A DNA stretch of 64,000 bases from a virus, in the IMG/VR virus record IMGVR_UViG_3300007102_000044, positions 40,254 to 104,253 of that record; one strand, written 5' to 3'. The first letter of the stretch is position 1; each line of letters begins with the position of its first letter. This document shows, piece by piece, positions 23,970 to 40,999 of this stretch. The notes beneath the pieces are model-generated. The model saw only the letters and a program-made list of their open reading frames with translations, had not been told where the DNA came from and ran no database searches. Made by a program: the position numbers and the translations under genes.

Positions 23970-24108
23970 CTAATGGACAATCTTTATGAAGTTCATCTGG
24001 ATTCACTTCAAACCCTTCATACTCACATTCATGATAACCTTTATCAATCATAATACAACCATTACATTCACCACAAGTGTTAATAATCTCTTTATATATT
24101 TTGGACAT
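23959..24108 (-). CDS. small Cys-rich protein
   Basis: CGECNGC..C..CPL; AGAGGT SD before MSKIY. Confidence 0.55.
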   Translation of the reverse strand: MSKIYKEIINTCGECNGCIMIDKGYHECEYEGFEVNPDELHKDCPLDDE

Positions 24109-24505
24109 TAAAACACCTCTCAATAATTTCTTTAACTTTTTTCCCATCTACAAGAGAACCAAAGTTTTTTGTAACAATACCAATAGCTTGCATTTTATTC
24201 TTAAGTGAAGAAAAATCAATATTTTCTTTAATCCAGTCAATTATATCTTCTTCAGGCAATTCTGATGGGATAAAATCATTAATAATCTGTATAAACTTTT
24301 CATCACCTTTACCATACTTATCAATCTTCTCTTGCTCATTAGCAACAATCTTTTTGAGTAATGAAATAACTTCATCATCATTCAAAACTTTCTTTGGTAG
24401 TCTCTGCATTTCACCGACTACAACTTGCATTGTAGAGAGTGTATTACTATCTTTCACTTTACGAGCGTTTACCAATGATTTCTGTATTTGTTCTTGTAGT
24501 GTCAT
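24092..24505 (-). CDS. GatB/YqeY-domain protein
   Basis: A.K.KD...LS....GE, F.PSEL.EE, MQAIG.V. Confidence 0.8.
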   Translation of the reverse strand: MTLQEQIQKSLVNARKVKDSNTLSTMQVVVGEMQRLPKKVLNDDEVISLLKKIVANEQEKIDKYGKGDEKFIQIINDFIPSELPEEDIIDWIKENIDFSSLKNKMQAIGIVTKNFGSLVDGKKVKEIIERCFNVQNI

Positions 24506-24514
24506 TTTTCCTCC

Positions 24515-25318
24515 TTATCTATAGTCATAAAGATAATAAACTTCATCATAAAGCTTATTAAGCTCTTCAAACTGTTCAGCGTTTGTAAAGAATCCGTGTG
24601 TGATAAACAGTCTTTTCTTACCAGTATTATTCATCTTTTTAGCCAGTTCAATAAAGGTTCTACCACCATCACAAATGTCATCAAACACATCAACATCTTT
24701 ACCTTCAAAATCTTTAACATCTATATCTGATGCAATGATTTTACCTGTTGAAAGTTCTCTAACCTTTGTAGCAATAGCAATATTTTTATATTGAAACTCT
24801 TTAGCAAGTTCATACGTTTCTTTGACAGCACCCAAATCAGGTGAAACTATATATCTATCATTTTCAATGTTGGAGGTTGGTGAGAATGGATTATATCCAA
24901 AAAAACTACTATCCCATATTTCTTTTTTCTTAATGATGTTAACAGGACAATCAAATACAGCTTCAGCAACATCACTATGCGGGTCAATCAGATAAACCAT
25001 CTCTGGGTTGACCATATTTGATATAAGTTTACCAAACCATTTAAGAGCATTAATATCAACTTCTGACATACTCCTATCATATCTTGCAAATGGAAGATAA
25101 TGAAAATATAGGCTTATTTTAAATCCTTTAAGTTTAACATATTCACATACTTGTAATAGTTTTGTCACAATATCATCAATTGGTTTATCGACTACAACAG
25201 CAACCCAAGCTTCACTATAATTAAAAATGTGATTAAATCCGTCTTCATTTAATACAACTTCACCATTAGGAAATTTGTTAAATGTAACATCACTCAGTAC
25301 AATATTATTTTGACTCAT
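24515..25318 (-). CDS. prs: PRPP-synthetase-like pyrophosphokinase (NARP1 Adps candidate)
   Basis: KFPNGE, YLPFARYDR, DPHS, SPDLGA, KVRE, DDICDGGRTF, THG. Confidence 0.85.
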   Translation of the reverse strand: MSQNNIVLSDVTFNKFPNGEVVLNEDGFNHIFNYSEAWVAVVVDKPIDDIVTKLLQVCEYVKLKGFKISLYFHYLPFARYDRSMSEVDINALKWFGKLISNMVNPEMVYLIDPHSDVAEAVFDCPVNIIKKKEIWDSSFFGYNPFSPTSNIENDRYIVSPDLGAVKETYELAKEFQYKNIAIATKVRELSTGKIIASDIDVKDFEGKDVDVFDDICDGGRTFIELAKKMNNTGKKRLFITHGFFTNAEQFEELNKLYDEVYYLYDYR

Positions 25319-25746
25319 CTTGAAACCCTCCTTTGAATCTCTTCTTGTCTTTCCTTTTCAATAATGCTTAGAACCATATTCAAATTACAGTATGCTGAAT
25401 AAAGCCCCGCCCTATCATCTAAAAGTATATTATAATATATCTTTTTACCACCAGTGTCAACAGGGGATTCATTGATTTTAAACTTTTTCAATCCTATTAT
25501 AGCACGTATATAATTAGATATAAATTTTTCATCAGGATTAGCAGTATAACAAACTAATGTCATGTCAACCTGTTCACACCTTCTAAGTATTTCAAAAAGT
25601 TTATCAAATTTATAACCCTTATGGTGATAGTCATAAACTGTGTTATCGAAATCAAAAGCAACCACAAGATTACCATGTGACTGATAATCTTGCAGTAGCC
25701 TTTCTACACACATACTATTTGTTAGAAATGGGTCTGTATTAAACAT
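25315..25746 (-). CDS. HAD-like hydrolase
   Basis: AFDFDNTV, YTAN, LLDDRAG; start moved to MFNTD overlapping upstream stop. Confidence 0.75.
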   Translation of the reverse strand: MFNTDPFLTNSMCVERLLQDYQSHGNLVVAFDFDNTVYDYHHKGYKFDKLFEILRRCEQVDMTLVCYTANPDEKFISNYIRAIIGLKKFKINESPVDTGGKKIYYNILLDDRAGLYSAYCNLNMVLSIIEKERQEEIQRRVSR

Positions 25747-26749
25747 TTCTAAGCCTTTCTCTAATATTACTAAACTTTTCATCTCTGATAAGTTTACCAT
25801 CTTTGAAAACAGTTTTGAGCATGTTAAGTGAACATTCTTCTGTTTCTCTATTCACTCCATCCACAACAACTATTTTACCTTCTTCATCTTTTTGAACATA
25901 AAGAAGACCTTTAGCGGATTTTTTGACACCGTTGTCTGTTTTAGGGTCTTTGAAGATTGCTTGTTCTTCATCACCGATAGTAACATTTGTAGCTTTTACA
26001 GCCATCCCAAAGGTGTCTCTGGTGTTATATTGGTAAGTATAAGAACCAACTCCAAAAACGATATTTGTTGATGCAAATCCCTTCTTTTTGAGTCTTTCAA
26101 GGATTTTTTCACATCTTTCAAGTGTGATAGAATCACCATAAATAGCACCAATATGAGCGTCAAGTTCAATATAACCATTACTGTTTTTGTTACCACCAAA
26201 AGTATCATAAAGGGATTGAATAAGTCCTTTCTCCTGACATGTTAGCTTAATTTCTTTAATTGAACTAAGTTCCATATTATTGATATAGTTTCTAGGATAT
26301 GAACTCCATTCATCTTCAATATAATAATCAATGCTAACAGTATATTCAAAATATTTCTCATTGACTCTACAAATACCAATAACTGTACCTGCATGTTCAA
26401 ACCCATCTTCATCATTTCTTATATCATCTTTTATAAGTTCTGCAAGATGACCATCATCACTATCATTAACAAGGTCAAGTGTTATAAACTCAGAAAAATC
26501 AGGTATATCAATCCCACAAATAATATCAACGGGGTCTCCTGAATCTGGTCTGATAACAACTTTTCCATCTCTTTTCATGATATCATCTTTAAGAGTTGGA
26601 AGATATTCACCAACAACTTTCCAGAAATCAAAACTGTCGGACACTATAGATACTATTCCGTTTGGGTAAACATTTGAAATTAAATTCTTAATAGTTATTA
26701 ATTCCCCCCACCCTATCATTTCTTCATCTGTAAAAAACTTATTTTTCAT
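25739..26749 (-). CDS. nadV: NAMPT/Namat, C-terminal half of split gene
   Basis: VSIVSDSFD, IRPDSGDP, AIYGDSIT, VFGVGSYT, KDPKTD..KKSAKG; own AGGAGG SD. Confidence 0.9.
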   Translation of the reverse strand: MKNKFFTDEEMIGWGELITIKNLISNVYPNGIVSIVSDSFDFWKVVGEYLPTLKDDIMKRDGKVVIRPDSGDPVDIICGIDIPDFSEFITLDLVNDSDDGHLAELIKDDIRNDEDGFEHAGTVIGICRVNEKYFEYTVSIDYYIEDEWSSYPRNYINNMELSSIKEIKLTCQEKGLIQSLYDTFGGNKNSNGYIELDAHIGAIYGDSITLERCEKILERLKKKGFASTNIVFGVGSYTYQYNTRDTFGMAVKATNVTIGDEEQAIFKDPKTDNGVKKSAKGLLYVQKDEEGKIVVVDGVNRETEECSLNMLKTVFKDGKLIRDEKFSNIRERLRNV

Positions 26750-26779
26750 TTTAAAATCCTCCTTTTTAACTCATATAAA

Positions 26780-26787
26780 GATAAATA
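26780..26787 (+). promoter_or_regulatory. late promoter for the HNH endonuclease
   Basis: GATAAATA ending 6 nt before ATG 26794. Confidence 0.7.
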
Positions 26788-26793
26788 TTATAT

Positions 26794-27516
26794 ATGAATT
26801 ATAAAAATATGTATACACAAATTATTAATTTAGCCAAAAATAAAAATAGGTCTAAAAATGATGGATATTTTGAAAATCATCATATTGTACCAAAATCACT
26901 TGGTGGTGATAATAATCCATCTAATTTAGTTTTACTAACAGCTAAAGAACATTTTATTTGTCATCATCTTTTAACTAAAATTTACCCAAACAATAACAAA
27001 TTAAAATTTGCATTCTGGGCTATGTGTAACCAAACACATGGTGACGTTAAAAGAACATATAAAATAACATCAACCGTTTATGAACAATCAAAAATTGAAT
27101 TTGCTAAAGCCAATTCTAAAAATAGAAAGGGTGTGTCAGTAATGACTAAAGAAAGAAGACAAATTCAATCAATTAATTGGAAAAATAACAACCCTCATAA
27201 AGCTGGTAAAGAAAGTCATTTATATAATACTCCTAGAAATAAATCCATTAAAAACAAAATATCTACCACTAAAATTAATAACCCAGAAAGAAATGCTCAA
27301 TATAAAGGTGATTGGATAACACCATTTGGTATATTCAAATCAGCTAATCAAGCATCTAAATCATGTGGTATAATTGTTGATACCATTAGAAAAAGGTGTA
27401 ATAATGCATCTAAAATAATTACTAAAAGAATGATTTCAAACACATATGATTTAAATGAATCTCATATAGGAAAAACATTTAAAGAATTAGGTTGGGATTT
27501 TCAACCAATTCCATAA
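26794..27516 (+). mobile_element. mobE: MobE-like free-standing HNH homing endonuclease inside NAMPT gene
   Basis: MNY..Y..II..A, ENHHIVPKSLGG.N...NLV.LTAKEHF.CH.LL; C-terminal NUMOD-like HTH. Confidence 0.85.
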
Positions 27517-28330
27517 TCTTTTCATACGCATCTTCTTTATTTGAACATTCTTCAATTATTTCATTTATTTTTTCAGCGTATATTTTCGCAGATGATGTCA
27601 TTACACTATGTTCTGTTGCACCAACACTTCCACCAACAAAACCATCTTCGTTGTAATACTGTTTAGCACAAATAATAGCAGGAAGAGTATCCGTTCCCAT
27701 AAATGATGTAAGATGCCCCATACCAGATGTACAAGCACTTTCTCTTCCACCCATACCCCTAAAACTAAAATCATGACATTGAAAATCTTTAAACCATTCC
27801 ATTTCATCACTACCAGTTTCAGCAAAATACTTATCAACAATCTTTCTATATTCAAATGCAATAGTAGCACTTGTGATAGGTTGCCAAATAATAGCACTGA
27901 AAATAGTTTCAATATAGTTTGTCACCCAGAAAAATTCATCAATAGTATTTTCAATAGTGATGAATGGAACTCTAATAGGTGCTAGTGTTCCTTCTGGAAG
28001 TGCTTTAATAACAATTGGAAGATAACCTAAATCATGAAGCCTTTCAATATGTGTTGTATCGAAATCTTCAGTATTAAGAGCCATTGTAATTTCAGATTTA
28101 TAACTGTTTACAACTTCTTCTTTTGGTTTATCAAAGAAATTCTTTTGAAAATAATCCATAATGAAATCTTTGATTAGATGTGTATATCCAAACACAACGA
28201 CCTCATTTACTCCATTGAGTCTACTTGTCCTCGCTGTGAGGTTTGAATAAACCTTTTTAATACCTTTTGGGTATTGATTAATATGACCAACCTTATAAAA
28301 GTCAGTCCAAAACATAGCGTTCATTTCCAT
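27479..28330 (-). CDS. nadV: NAMPT/Namat, N-terminal half of split gene
   Basis: TDFYKVGH..QYP, YIET, HDFSFRG, GHLTSF.GTDT, ATEHSVM. Confidence 0.9.
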   Translation of the reverse strand: MEMNAMFWTDFYKVGHINQYPKGIKKVYSNLTARTSRLNGVNEVVVFGYTHLIKDFIMDYFQKNFFDKPKEEVVNSYKSEITMALNTEDFDTTHIERLHDLGYLPIVIKALPEGTLAPIRVPFITIENTIDEFFWVTNYIETIFSAIIWQPITSATIAFEYRKIVDKYFAETGSDEMEWFKDFQCHDFSFRGMGGRESACTSGMGHLTSFMGTDTLPAIICAKQYYNEDGFVGGSVGATEHSVMTSSAKIYAEKINEIIEECSNKEDAYEKIMELVENPNLIL

Positions 28331-28342
28331 AATTTTTACTCC

Positions 28343-28552
28343 TTACCTTTTTAGTTTTTTCTTTTCTTTATCTTTATTTTGATACTTCATACCAACATCC
28401 TGTTTTATACATAGATTATCACACACTGGACAATCCATATCATTTGCTTTCAAACAGTCATAACAGACTATATGAGAACAAATAGGTGTATAATTCTGAT
28501 GTGTTACATTTCCACACATATCACAAACAGCTGAAAATATTGTTGGTATCAT
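28343..28552 (-). CDS. C3HC4 RING-finger protein (69 aa)
   Basis: C-x2-C-x11-C-x-H-x2-C-x2-C-x7-C-x2-C; GAGG SD before MIPTIF. Confidence 0.7.
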   Translation of the reverse strand: MIPTIFSAVCDMCGNVTHQNYTPICSHIVCYDCLKANDMDCPVCDNLCIKQDVGMKYQNKDKEKKKLKR

Positions 28553-28556
28553 TTTT

Positions 28557-29297
28557 CTAATCCTCGTAATATTGATTGATAACATTATTCCATGTGTAGT
28601 ATGTCCAATCTTCTTTTGGAAAATGTCTACCATCTTTACTTGTCATTACAATACCATATCTAAATCTATATGGTAGGTTATGCCAAGTTCTATCACATCT
28701 ACCTTCATTGAATGCTGTTTCAATCATTTCTATCATATCAGCTTTACCTTGTTTGTAAAGCTCTTTGTGACTATATACTGTCCTTGCATACATTGACACA
28801 GAATTTTTAATACAATCTCTATGTATCCATAACATATAATTACCTAAATCTTCTTTAGGTACATTGAATATTCTGGAATCAAACATTGCAAGTTTTGTTG
28901 TGCTTGTTCGGTCTTTAATGACTTGATTAAATATTGCCGTAGCCATACTAGCTGTAACACTTGCAAGTTTCTGTATCTTATTTCCAAACATTTGTTCAGA
29001 GTGTTCATTCTTATCATCCAGTAGAATGAGACTTATTTCATCACTTTGTGTATACCCAATACAACAGTTTTGAACATTTTTTACAAGATATTCAGTTGTT
29101 TTATCCATTGCATATGTGATATCTTCATCGAATGGATATTCAAATCCTTTTGTATATGTATGAAAAGCTTTACCATCAATTCTTATTACAACTGGTGTTT
29201 TCTTTTCAACACAATCTGAAGTATATACATGTTCGTATTGTTTCATTCTTTGCCCAATTGGGTCTTTGTCATAACTTTTACTCATATAATTGACCAT
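28557..29297 (-). CDS. thg1: tRNA(His) guanylyltransferase Thg1-like 3'-5' polymerase
   Basis: IRIDGKAFHTYT, YTQSDEISL, K..SV.ASMAT..F, FDSR. Confidence 0.9.
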   Translation of the reverse strand: MVNYMSKSYDKDPIGQRMKQYEHVYTSDCVEKKTPVVIRIDGKAFHTYTKGFEYPFDEDITYAMDKTTEYLVKNVQNCCIGYTQSDEISLILLDDKNEHSEQMFGNKIQKLASVTASMATAIFNQVIKDRTSTTKLAMFDSRIFNVPKEDLGNYMLWIHRDCIKNSVSMYARTVYSHKELYKQGKADMIEMIETAFNEGRCDRTWHNLPYRFRYGIVMTSKDGRHFPKEDWTYYTWNNVINQYYED

Positions 29298-40114: not shown

Positions 40115-40999
40115 TTATATTTCAAATCCTTTACTATCAGTCTCATAAGCTGGAACATGAGCGGATAAATATTTAAACACGCCCATGTAATTAATCTTAG
40201 TACGACCATTATTTTTATTATCATAATACATATACATAATGTTGTCAAATAGTTTTTTAGGAATTGTTTTAGAACTCAGTTCAACAAGTTTCCTATTCCT
40301 AATAAAATTTTTCTTCAGGTCATGTTTCTTCACATACTCTTTTATACCTTCATGATATTCAGATTTGACTTTCTTATTCATCTGTTTCTGTCTATCTGGT
40401 AATAGAAATATATTATCAGGACTATGCATATTTGGCACACCGTCATCGGAATCACCAATCAGATACATTTCATTCAGATATGCATAAGGGTCATCACAGA
40501 CGATAAATTCATCTTTCATGTAATTATACTGTCTTACATTCTTATATTTTTGAAGCTGTTGAAAGTCTTTATCTCTGGATATAATAACTATATCATCAAA
40601 TTCATTATGCAACTCTTCAACAAGCGCACCTATTACATCATCACCTTCAGCCTTTTTAACCTTTACAACATTATAAGGAAAATATTTATCAAGTGCTGTA
40701 AGGATATTATCCATTGACTCTTTCATAAGTTCATATGTGAGCGGGTCTTCCTTTTTCTTTTGATTACGTTTATATTTGTAATACTCATAGAAATCATACC
40801 GCCATGAACCATCATCACAACAGACAACAAATTCATCGATTGGTAAAAACTTAGCTATATACTGCTTAATATGAGTCATAACAATGTAAGCATGATAATC
40901 CATTTTATCATCATGTGCTATAGTCTTTTCATTTTTTACCGCACCATGCCAATCTGAATGAGCAATAGCACTAAAGTCAAGTAATACTATTCTTTTCAA
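40115..40999 (-). CDS. rnh: T4-type RNase H / 5'-3' flap exonuclease
   Basis: LLDFS, WR...Y..YK..R, EGDDVIG, SRDKDFQQL, GDSDDGVPN. Confidence 0.92.
   Translation of the reverse strand: MKRIVLLDFSAIAHSDWHGAVKNEKTIAHDDKMDYHAYIVMTHIKQYIAKFLPIDEFVVCCDDGSWRYDFYEYYKYKRNQKKKEDPLTYELMKESMDNILTALDKYFPYNVVKVKKAEGDDVIGALVEELHNEFDDIVIISRDKDFQQLQKYKNVRQYNYMKDEFIVCDDPYAYLNEMYLIGDSDDGVPNMHSPDNIFLLPDRQKQMNKKVKSEYHEGIKEYVKKHDLKKNFIRNRKLVELSSKTIPKKLFDNIMYMYYDNKNNGRTKINYMGVFKYLSAHVPAYETDSKGFEI

Follow-up and report, generated by a model that had tools for sequence, protein, structure and literature searches.

We describe a split counter-defence gene in a 64,000-nucleotide stretch of viral DNA (the window; positions 40,254 to 104,253 of IMG/VR record IMGVR_UViG_3300007102_000044). 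The gene encodes Namat, the second enzyme of NARP1, a phage counter-defence system that reconstitutes nicotinamide adenine dinucleotide (NAD+). Here Namat occupies two separate open reading frames (ORFs), termed the N-half and the C-half, with an HNH homing-endonuclease gene of the MobE family lying antisense between them. In our interpretation this MobE-family cassette splits the phage's only Namat into two chains, which probably co-fold into an NAD+-making enzyme. The whole genome is a 130.5-kb contig with direct terminal repeats from a bioreactor metagenome; it contains the endonuclease gene in single copy and no second copy of a Namat or NAMPT gene.

Two halves of one Namat

The crystallised Namat of Bacillus phage SPbetaL1 served as reference, with comparison by BLASTP. 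Residues 5-249 of the N-half align with SPbetaL1 Namat 8-253 at 54% identity, and residues 13-79 and 174-333 of the C-half align with positions 252-318 and 329-489, at 63% and 53% identity. Jointly the halves cover SPbetaL1 Namat 8-489, with no enzyme sequence lost; they are complementary pieces of one NAMPT/Namat, as an initial annotation made from the sequence alone had proposed. Pfam NAMPT_N and NAPRTase match the halves, which together cover positions 13-275 and 261-495 of the 500 in phrog_448. The break falls about 8 residues past the catalytic histidine (His241) and about 5-8 codons past the ATEHSVM motif, and on the C-half Namat homology begins again at residue 13, shortly ahead of YPNGIVSIVSD, as first described. 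Beyond what is found in the intact enzyme, the halves have a 34-aa tail on the N-half, a 12-aa head on the C-half and an insertion of about 95 aa within the C-half.

All three ORFs of the split locus have strong homologs, the Namat halves in PHROG nicotinamide phosphoribosyl transferase families (E 1e-97 and 1e-96), and they are therefore not chance ORFs. Apart from 44 nt, every part of the insert encodes protein on one of its two strands. In the 38-nt overlap where the N-half and endonuclease genes meet tail to tail, the last 12 codons of the N-half (...MELVENPNLIL-stop) lie antisense to the C-terminus of the endonuclease (...ELGWDFQPIP-stop). The initial annotation had the coordinates of both halves, the opposite strand of the endonuclease ORF, this overlap and the AGGAGG of the C-half exactly right. 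Its distance from EHSVM to the end of the N-half was the only value to change, from about 33 aa to 39 aa (M244 of 283). Coordinates are collected in Table 1.

Table 1. Features of the split Namat locus and its operon, in window coordinates
Feature	Position	Strand	Remarks
Namat N-half gene	27479..28330	-	283 aa; stop 27479..27481
N-half, enzyme part	residues 5-249, about 27584..28318	-	aligned to SPbetaL1 Namat 8-253
N-half tail	residues 250-283, 27482..27583	-	non-Namat, acidic, 34 aa
HNH homing-endonuclease gene	26794..27516	+	MobE family, free-standing type, antisense; 240 aa; HNH motif at residues 29-58
N-half/HNH overlap	27479..27516	both	tail-to-tail, 38 nt
Divergent spacer between HNH start and C-half start	26750..26793		44 nt; holds the C-half Shine-Dalgarno sequence
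C-half Shine-Dalgarno sequence	26758..26763	-	AGGAGG; 8 nt ahead of the C-half ATG
Namat C-half gene	25739..26749	-	336 aa; residues 1-12 are a non-Namat head
161-aa ORF between Namat C-half and Adps	25315..25800	-	phrog_1238, E 3.7e-15; no Pfam match
Adps-like gene (PRPP-synthetase-like)	24515..25318	-	NARP1 partner enzyme; phrog_619, E 1e-55
Thg1-like tRNA-His guanylyltransferase gene	28557..29297	-	flanking operon; Pfam E 1e-33
Small RING-finger-like ORF	28343..28633	-	flanking; weak Pfam matches
YqeY-like gene	24092..24505	-	flanking; E 9e-11

The structure of SPbetaL1 Namat with NAD+ defines 21 contact residues and a signature, GS-X-Phi1-X-Phi2-X-Phi3-TRD with X aromatic, that sets Namat apart from NAMPT (PMC12774641). 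None of the 21 is lost in the window: each is either unchanged or conservatively substituted (A362 to S, F392 to Y), within what the same study allows. Nine of these positions are in the N-half: D10, Y12, R37 (the SCL position equivalent to SPbetaL1 R40), the F, S and R of HDFSFRG, the D of GTDT, and the A and H of ATEHS, the last being catalytic His241. The other 12 are in the C-half, which carries R67 and D69 (RPDSGD), GDS, and the selectivity helix GSYTYQYNTRD, this being the Namat signature. The catalytic histidine and the residues of the NMN site are all identical; in SPbetaL1 numbering they are D13, Y15, F189, S190, R192, D215, A242 and H245 for the N-half, and R306, D308, G360, D361, G390, S391 and R399 for the C-half. 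The active site is thus divided between the chains, as was initially proposed. The locus is assigned to NARP1 with a Namat, not to a plain NAMPT, because of the Namat contact residues, the signature and the Adps-like neighbour.

We compared the break with 113 intact homologs. Residues equivalent to SPbetaL1 250-257 form the most variable stretch, and it is there that the only indel column falls between the near-invariant ATEHSVMC block and the F.RLI..YP.G block. The earlier placement of the cut in a variable loop holds accordingly. Homing endonucleases usually target DNA coding for conserved catalytic motifs, a habit that fits a break beside the ATEHSVMC block. By the domain description in PMC12774641, both structural domains would combine segments of both chains, and the halves would therefore have to co-fold.

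Structure prediction of the N-half/C-half complex, a check suggested at the outset, gave a score of 0.90, against 0.00 for the best of three controls. The mark used for this score was reached by 51 of 78 solved complexes and by 2 of 108 mismatched pairs. Runs agreed in at least 98% of contacts, of which there were about 395, and partner pLDDT was at least 86. This pass may reflect the predictor's familiarity with the fold, since single-chain NAMPT and Namat structures have been solved; the model is a sign of likeness to the intact fold, not of binding by these particular chains.

C-half residues of about 80-173 (26231-26512, minus strand) make up the insertion of about 95 aa, which is specific to this lineage and is flanked by ...DPVDIICG and KGLIQSLYDTFGG. 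With Tsamsa-like Bacillus phages the alignment runs through it in one piece; three of the related loci described below (L007, L008 and L013) are without most of it.

The antisense endonuclease gene

Over 122 aa, the HNH protein and T4 MobE share 44% identity (E 1e-29). Both fall in phrog_655 (homing endonuclease), the window protein at E 7.5e-45 and T4 MobE at E 6.5e-52, and the motif HH..P...GG.....NLV.LTA.EHF..H is common to them. Together the similarity and the shared PHROG justify the name MobE-like, under which the insert had been introduced. Among isolate phages the nearest protein was only 32% identical (best tblastn), and this endonuclease clade is therefore absent from the isolate collection. 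The 2.85-kb split region likewise had no megablast match among isolate phages, and a PDB search with the HNH protein returned nothing better than E 0.16.

Phage homing endonucleases often reside in introns or inteins, and there are fractured genes in which a free-standing endonuclease separates the halves of a split intein (PMC2677866). The halves might by analogy be rejoined, either through a group I or group II intron bearing an antisense endonuclease gene or through a split intein. We consider such rejoining very unlikely. No Rfam family matched at E≤1 on either strand of 25000-29000, and with 44 nt of the insert non-coding there is no room for an intron scaffold, a point already made in the initial annotation. 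Tail and head sum to 46 aa, in which Pfam detected no intein domain; to our knowledge this is far shorter than any intein. The C-half moreover has its own Shine-Dalgarno sequence and ATG. With no intron family match, an orientation antisense to the host gene and a downstream half that has its own start, the endonuclease gene lies outside any intron or intein.

The window stems from a metagenome assembly, and the only sequencing run that contains it (X1) is probably its own source sample, so we considered a chimera that placed the endonuclease gene inside Namat. A separate assembly of X1 by Logan yielded a contig of 119,913 nt that matches the window throughout 25000-29000 without a difference and at an even depth of 18.5, although this is probably the source sample and not independent data. 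Logan contigs of the run contained no insert-free (joined) form of Namat, and no RNA dataset was listed as containing the window. The same order, overlap and breakpoint also occur in contigs from at least eight other samples, in three repositories. Misassembly, the danger to which the initial annotation had pointed, thus has a negligible probability.

A MobE-split enzyme has a precedent, correctly cited in the initial annotation. In phage Aeh1, mobE splits nrdA, and the resulting NrdA-a and NrdA-b co-assemble and are fully active; tails derived from the insertion are essential (Crona et al. 2011, PMC3045599; Friedrich et al. 2007, as described in PMC2988022). As in Aeh1, a MobE-family HNH gene sits inside an enzyme gene at a conserved active-site region, producing separately translated halves with the catalytic residues partitioned between the chains and with short non-homologous C- and N-terminal tails from the insertion. 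The targets differ, Namat for anti-defence NAD+ reconstitution as opposed to ribonucleotide reductase, and so do the layouts: the window endonuclease is antisense and overlaps the upstream half, whereas in Aeh1 mobE and nrdA are drawn pointing the same way, with mobE overlapping nrdA-b. For Aeh1, experiments demonstrated both activity and what the tails do; the Namat split is known here from sequence.

Recurrence at one breakpoint

A search with the HNH protein turned up about 50 full-length relatives, 44-60% identical, that form a clade, and a search with the N-half found further N-half-sized proteins. We examined the context of seven clade members: P0152 (L008), P0126 (L011), P0127, P0128 (L012), P0135, P0138 (L013, L014) and P0147 (L015, L016). 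All seven have the same layout: the HNH gene (47-64% identity in the comparisons made) runs antisense, with a Namat N-half of 267-283 aa on one side of it and a C-half of 256-329 aa on the other, the C-half of L011 being cut by the contig end. Overlap of the HNH gene with the N-half 3' end was 23-89 nt, and the HNH start was 23-53 nt from the C-half start, again in seven of seven. The five loci with nucleotide sequence have a common breakpoint: N-half homology stops after EHSVx and C-half homology resumes before FKRLITE.YP.G. At an eighth locus, L007, the gene in the same Namat break is endonuclease-VII-like (phrog_1035) and unrelated to the others.

Presence of the MobE-like gene at its fixed Namat site is patchy, a footprint expected of a mobile element. 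It was found in the window, L008, L011, L012, L013/L014, L015/L016 and two further contigs, and is absent from the intact Namats of L003, SPbetaL1 and many others. In L005 a clade member stands free, antisense and immediately upstream of an intact 499-aa Namat. This arrangement mirrors T4 mobE beside intact nrdA, just as the split loci parallel Aeh1 mobE inside nrdA. The Aeh1 split was unique among 1200 nrdA sequences; the Namat split occurs in at least eight other, mostly divergent contigs.

Host halves are merely 42-54% identical between most of the loci, yet their frames stay open, and the contact residues and selectivity motif are kept in the window and in the five other split loci with a complete C-half. 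This recurrence in other phages makes a working two-chain enzyme much more likely. Pairwise identities of HNH and Namat proteins correlated weakly (r 0.47) and are too saturated to interpret. A tree of split and intact Namats had long branches, and monophyly of the six MobE-split Namats was not rejected in the approximately unbiased (AU) test (p-AU 0.384). Either history, a single old insertion or repeated homing, argues from these sequences for purifying selection on the split enzyme, and hence for its function.

A 15-mer, GAAAATCCCAACCTA (window 27490-27506), is identical at the N-half 3' ends of the window, L012, L013 and L015, although identity between their proteins is only about 50%. Read on one strand it gives ENPNL, and on the other GWDF, an endonuclease C-terminal motif; the tails of the four loci share the ending ...ENPNL(I/V/S)L. 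In the window this region contains a small hairpin, GGTTG-7 nt-CAACC, that was flagged by a terminator scan. In the complex model N-half residues 247-283 touch C-half residues 1-28 with helical periodicity, reminiscent of the NrdA tails essential for Aeh1 activity; our hypothesis, prompted by this model, is that the Namat tails may take part in assembly. The overlap of the halves at phrog_448 positions 261-275 had raised the idea that the N tail duplicates the Namat helix from just past the break, which shuffling (p 0.05-0.9) did not support. The window tail exceeds those of L012 and L013 by about 14 aa. By eye, it resembles an internal repeat of one amphipathic segment (YAEKINEIIEE / YEKIMELVEN).

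Three apparent parallels were set aside. Staphylococcus phage Alsa_1 has two NAMPT ORFs 80 nt apart, with no endonuclease gene and a break elsewhere. The match in Salmonella phage FO1a begins at query residue 256, but it is a truncated nadV with no endonuclease gene there. L009 (2303-3758) has NAMPT/Namat-like ORFs of 319 and 156 aa separated by a 25-nt gap, again with no endonuclease and with a different break; this form could reflect a frameshift, a sequencing error or a different natural split. The L009 operon is bacterial-looking, with a NUDIX/NrtR regulator, PRPS-like, NADAR and PTS_2-RNA genes.

Among the nicotinamide phosphoribosyl transferase families of PHROGs, two are of half length: phrog_16547, with 315 positions, resembles the N-half, and phrog_15800, with 322 positions, the C-half. 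A further family, phrog_12872 (547 positions), is matched by both Adps and the Namat C-half. Deposited phages thus already include half-sized forms, and possibly fused ones.

Function, proposed mechanism and neighbouring genes

Several observations weigh against a functional two-chain Namat. Its function is a prediction from sequence. Conservation of ENPNL may be a by-product of the HNH GWDF motif on the opposite strand; the tails have no significant similarity to each other or to the Namat helix (shuffling tests, p 0.05-0.9), and tail comparison lends no support to their role in assembly. A sigma-70 promoter scan was uninformative in this AT-rich DNA, finding sites at the chance rate, 35 against 34.9 expected. 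The 720-nt antisense stretch between the cistrons could lower C-half expression or allow antisense RNA interference, and the C-half of L008 has no recognisable Shine-Dalgarno sequence.

An alternative is that the insertion inactivated Namat, the ORFs then being a two-piece pseudogene and NARP1 activity gone. Insertion into an active-site region normally kills a gene. The single-chain state is also strongly preferred: of 2039 isolate-phage records that match NAMPT/Namat, 1973 contain a single place that covers 80% or more of the query, and extra places number only 8. A pseudogene is nonetheless unlikely in our judgement. Both ORFs are fully open (283 and 336 codons) in DNA of 30% GC, the 21 contact positions are conserved along with the selectivity motif, the Shine-Dalgarno sequence and ATG of the C-half are canonical, and Adps is intact alongside. 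The same split, moreover, recurs in at least eight other contigs whose halves, at 42-54% identity, show neither stops nor loss of catalytic residues.

We therefore favor a split Namat that works as two chains, and propose that it arose as follows. A MobE-family HNH cassette would have inserted antisense into Namat, past ATEHSVM. The upstream frame now reads into the 3' end of the endonuclease gene up to a stop, giving the 34-aa acidic tail, and the downstream part has a Shine-Dalgarno sequence, ATG and 12-aa head of its own. Translation of a single operon transcript would thus produce separate chains of 283 and 336 aa, which would co-fold into a Namat-like protomer with an NAD+/nicotinamide site drawn from both; the protomer presumably dimerises like the single-chain enzyme. 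Uninterrupted Namat alleles are the presumed target of the endonuclease, cut at or near the very conserved ATEHSVMC-coding DNA; recombinational repair would then spread its gene, with the tail and head codons carried along. Translation of both halves, their assembly, NAD+ synthesis, and the activity and target of the endonuclease are all inferred.

More tentatively, the mobile unit could be a gene-splitting cassette as such, made up of tail codons and stop, the antisense MobE-like gene, a ribosome-binding site, a start and head codons, that homes into the ATEHSVM-coding site of diverse Namats and leaves the enzyme active as two chains. We hold this broader proposal to be possible, with the odds somewhat against it. 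If it were true, splitting into subunits would be a recurrent, heritable third way, beside introns and inteins, for an endonuclease to live inside an essential active-site region, and co-conversion of flanking DNA could drive the NARP1 locus through mixed phage populations.

The class of mechanism is already established, in Aeh1 nrdA, T4 gene 39/60 and phage 25 gene 43. In T4 topoisomerase gene 39/60 with mobA and in Aeromonas phage 25 gene 43A/43B with a seg-like gene, a free-standing homing endonuclease likewise splits an enzyme gene into two cistrons whose products there reassemble (PMC2988022). Those cases involve other endonuclease families or targets, and none is a counter-defence gene. 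What is new here is the NAD+ counter-defence target, the antisense overlapping layout, recurrence at the level of a family, and a second, unrelated endonuclease at the same site. A full-text literature search found no published description of a split Namat, in line with the initial annotation, which knew of no such split in an NAD counter-defence gene. The papers on NARP1 of SPbetaL1 and Bas63 and on Namat structure (10.1101/2024.02.11.579819; PMC12774641) make no mention of split genes or homing endonucleases.

Discovered only recently, NARP1 is under intensive study as a phage counter-defence, and surveys for homologs may overlook or misclassify two-gene Namats if they look for a single protein of about 490 aa. 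The split also offers a natural experiment on Namat folding, with the catalytic histidine and the selectivity clamp on separate chains and both structural domains predicted to combine the two. In homing-endonuclease biology, what was the lone case of Aeh1 nrdA becomes a phenomenon of a whole family: a single breakpoint is common to at least nine loci, two unrelated endonucleases use that site, and one free-standing relative lies next to an intact gene. With these in hand, two ideas become testable, that insertion-derived tails are a general remedy that neutralises gene fragmentation, and that endonucleases help anti-defence genes to spread.

The operon around the split gene resembles known NARP1 loci. 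As in SPbetaL1 and Escherichia phage Bas63, an Adps-like gene accompanies Namat (Osterman et al., bioRxiv 10.1101/2024.02.11.579819; PMC12774641); the window protein is 26% identical to SPbetaL1 Adps (E 9e-12). Unlike those loci, this one has Namat as two polypeptides, the insertion of about 95 aa in the C-half, and an extra 161-aa gene between Namat-C and Adps. That ORF overlaps the 3' end of Namat-C by 62 nt and belongs to the operon context, outside the split proper. Order on the minus strand is Thg1-like, RING-like ORF, Namat-N, Namat-C, 161-aa ORF, Adps-like, YqeY-like.

Small accessory genes were seen in or near the related NARP1 loci, namely Nuc_deoxyri_tr2 in L008, an NT5C-like gene in L013 and DSPc phosphatase-like genes in L012 and L015. 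Operons of an 'extended NARP1' type, to which a phosphatase has been added, are the subject of a 2026 preprint (10.64898/2026.01.28.702374). In L011, besides the MobE-like gene inside Namat, a second endonuclease-like gene with a faint NUMOD3 match (2026-2736) was noted just upstream of the Namat N-half.

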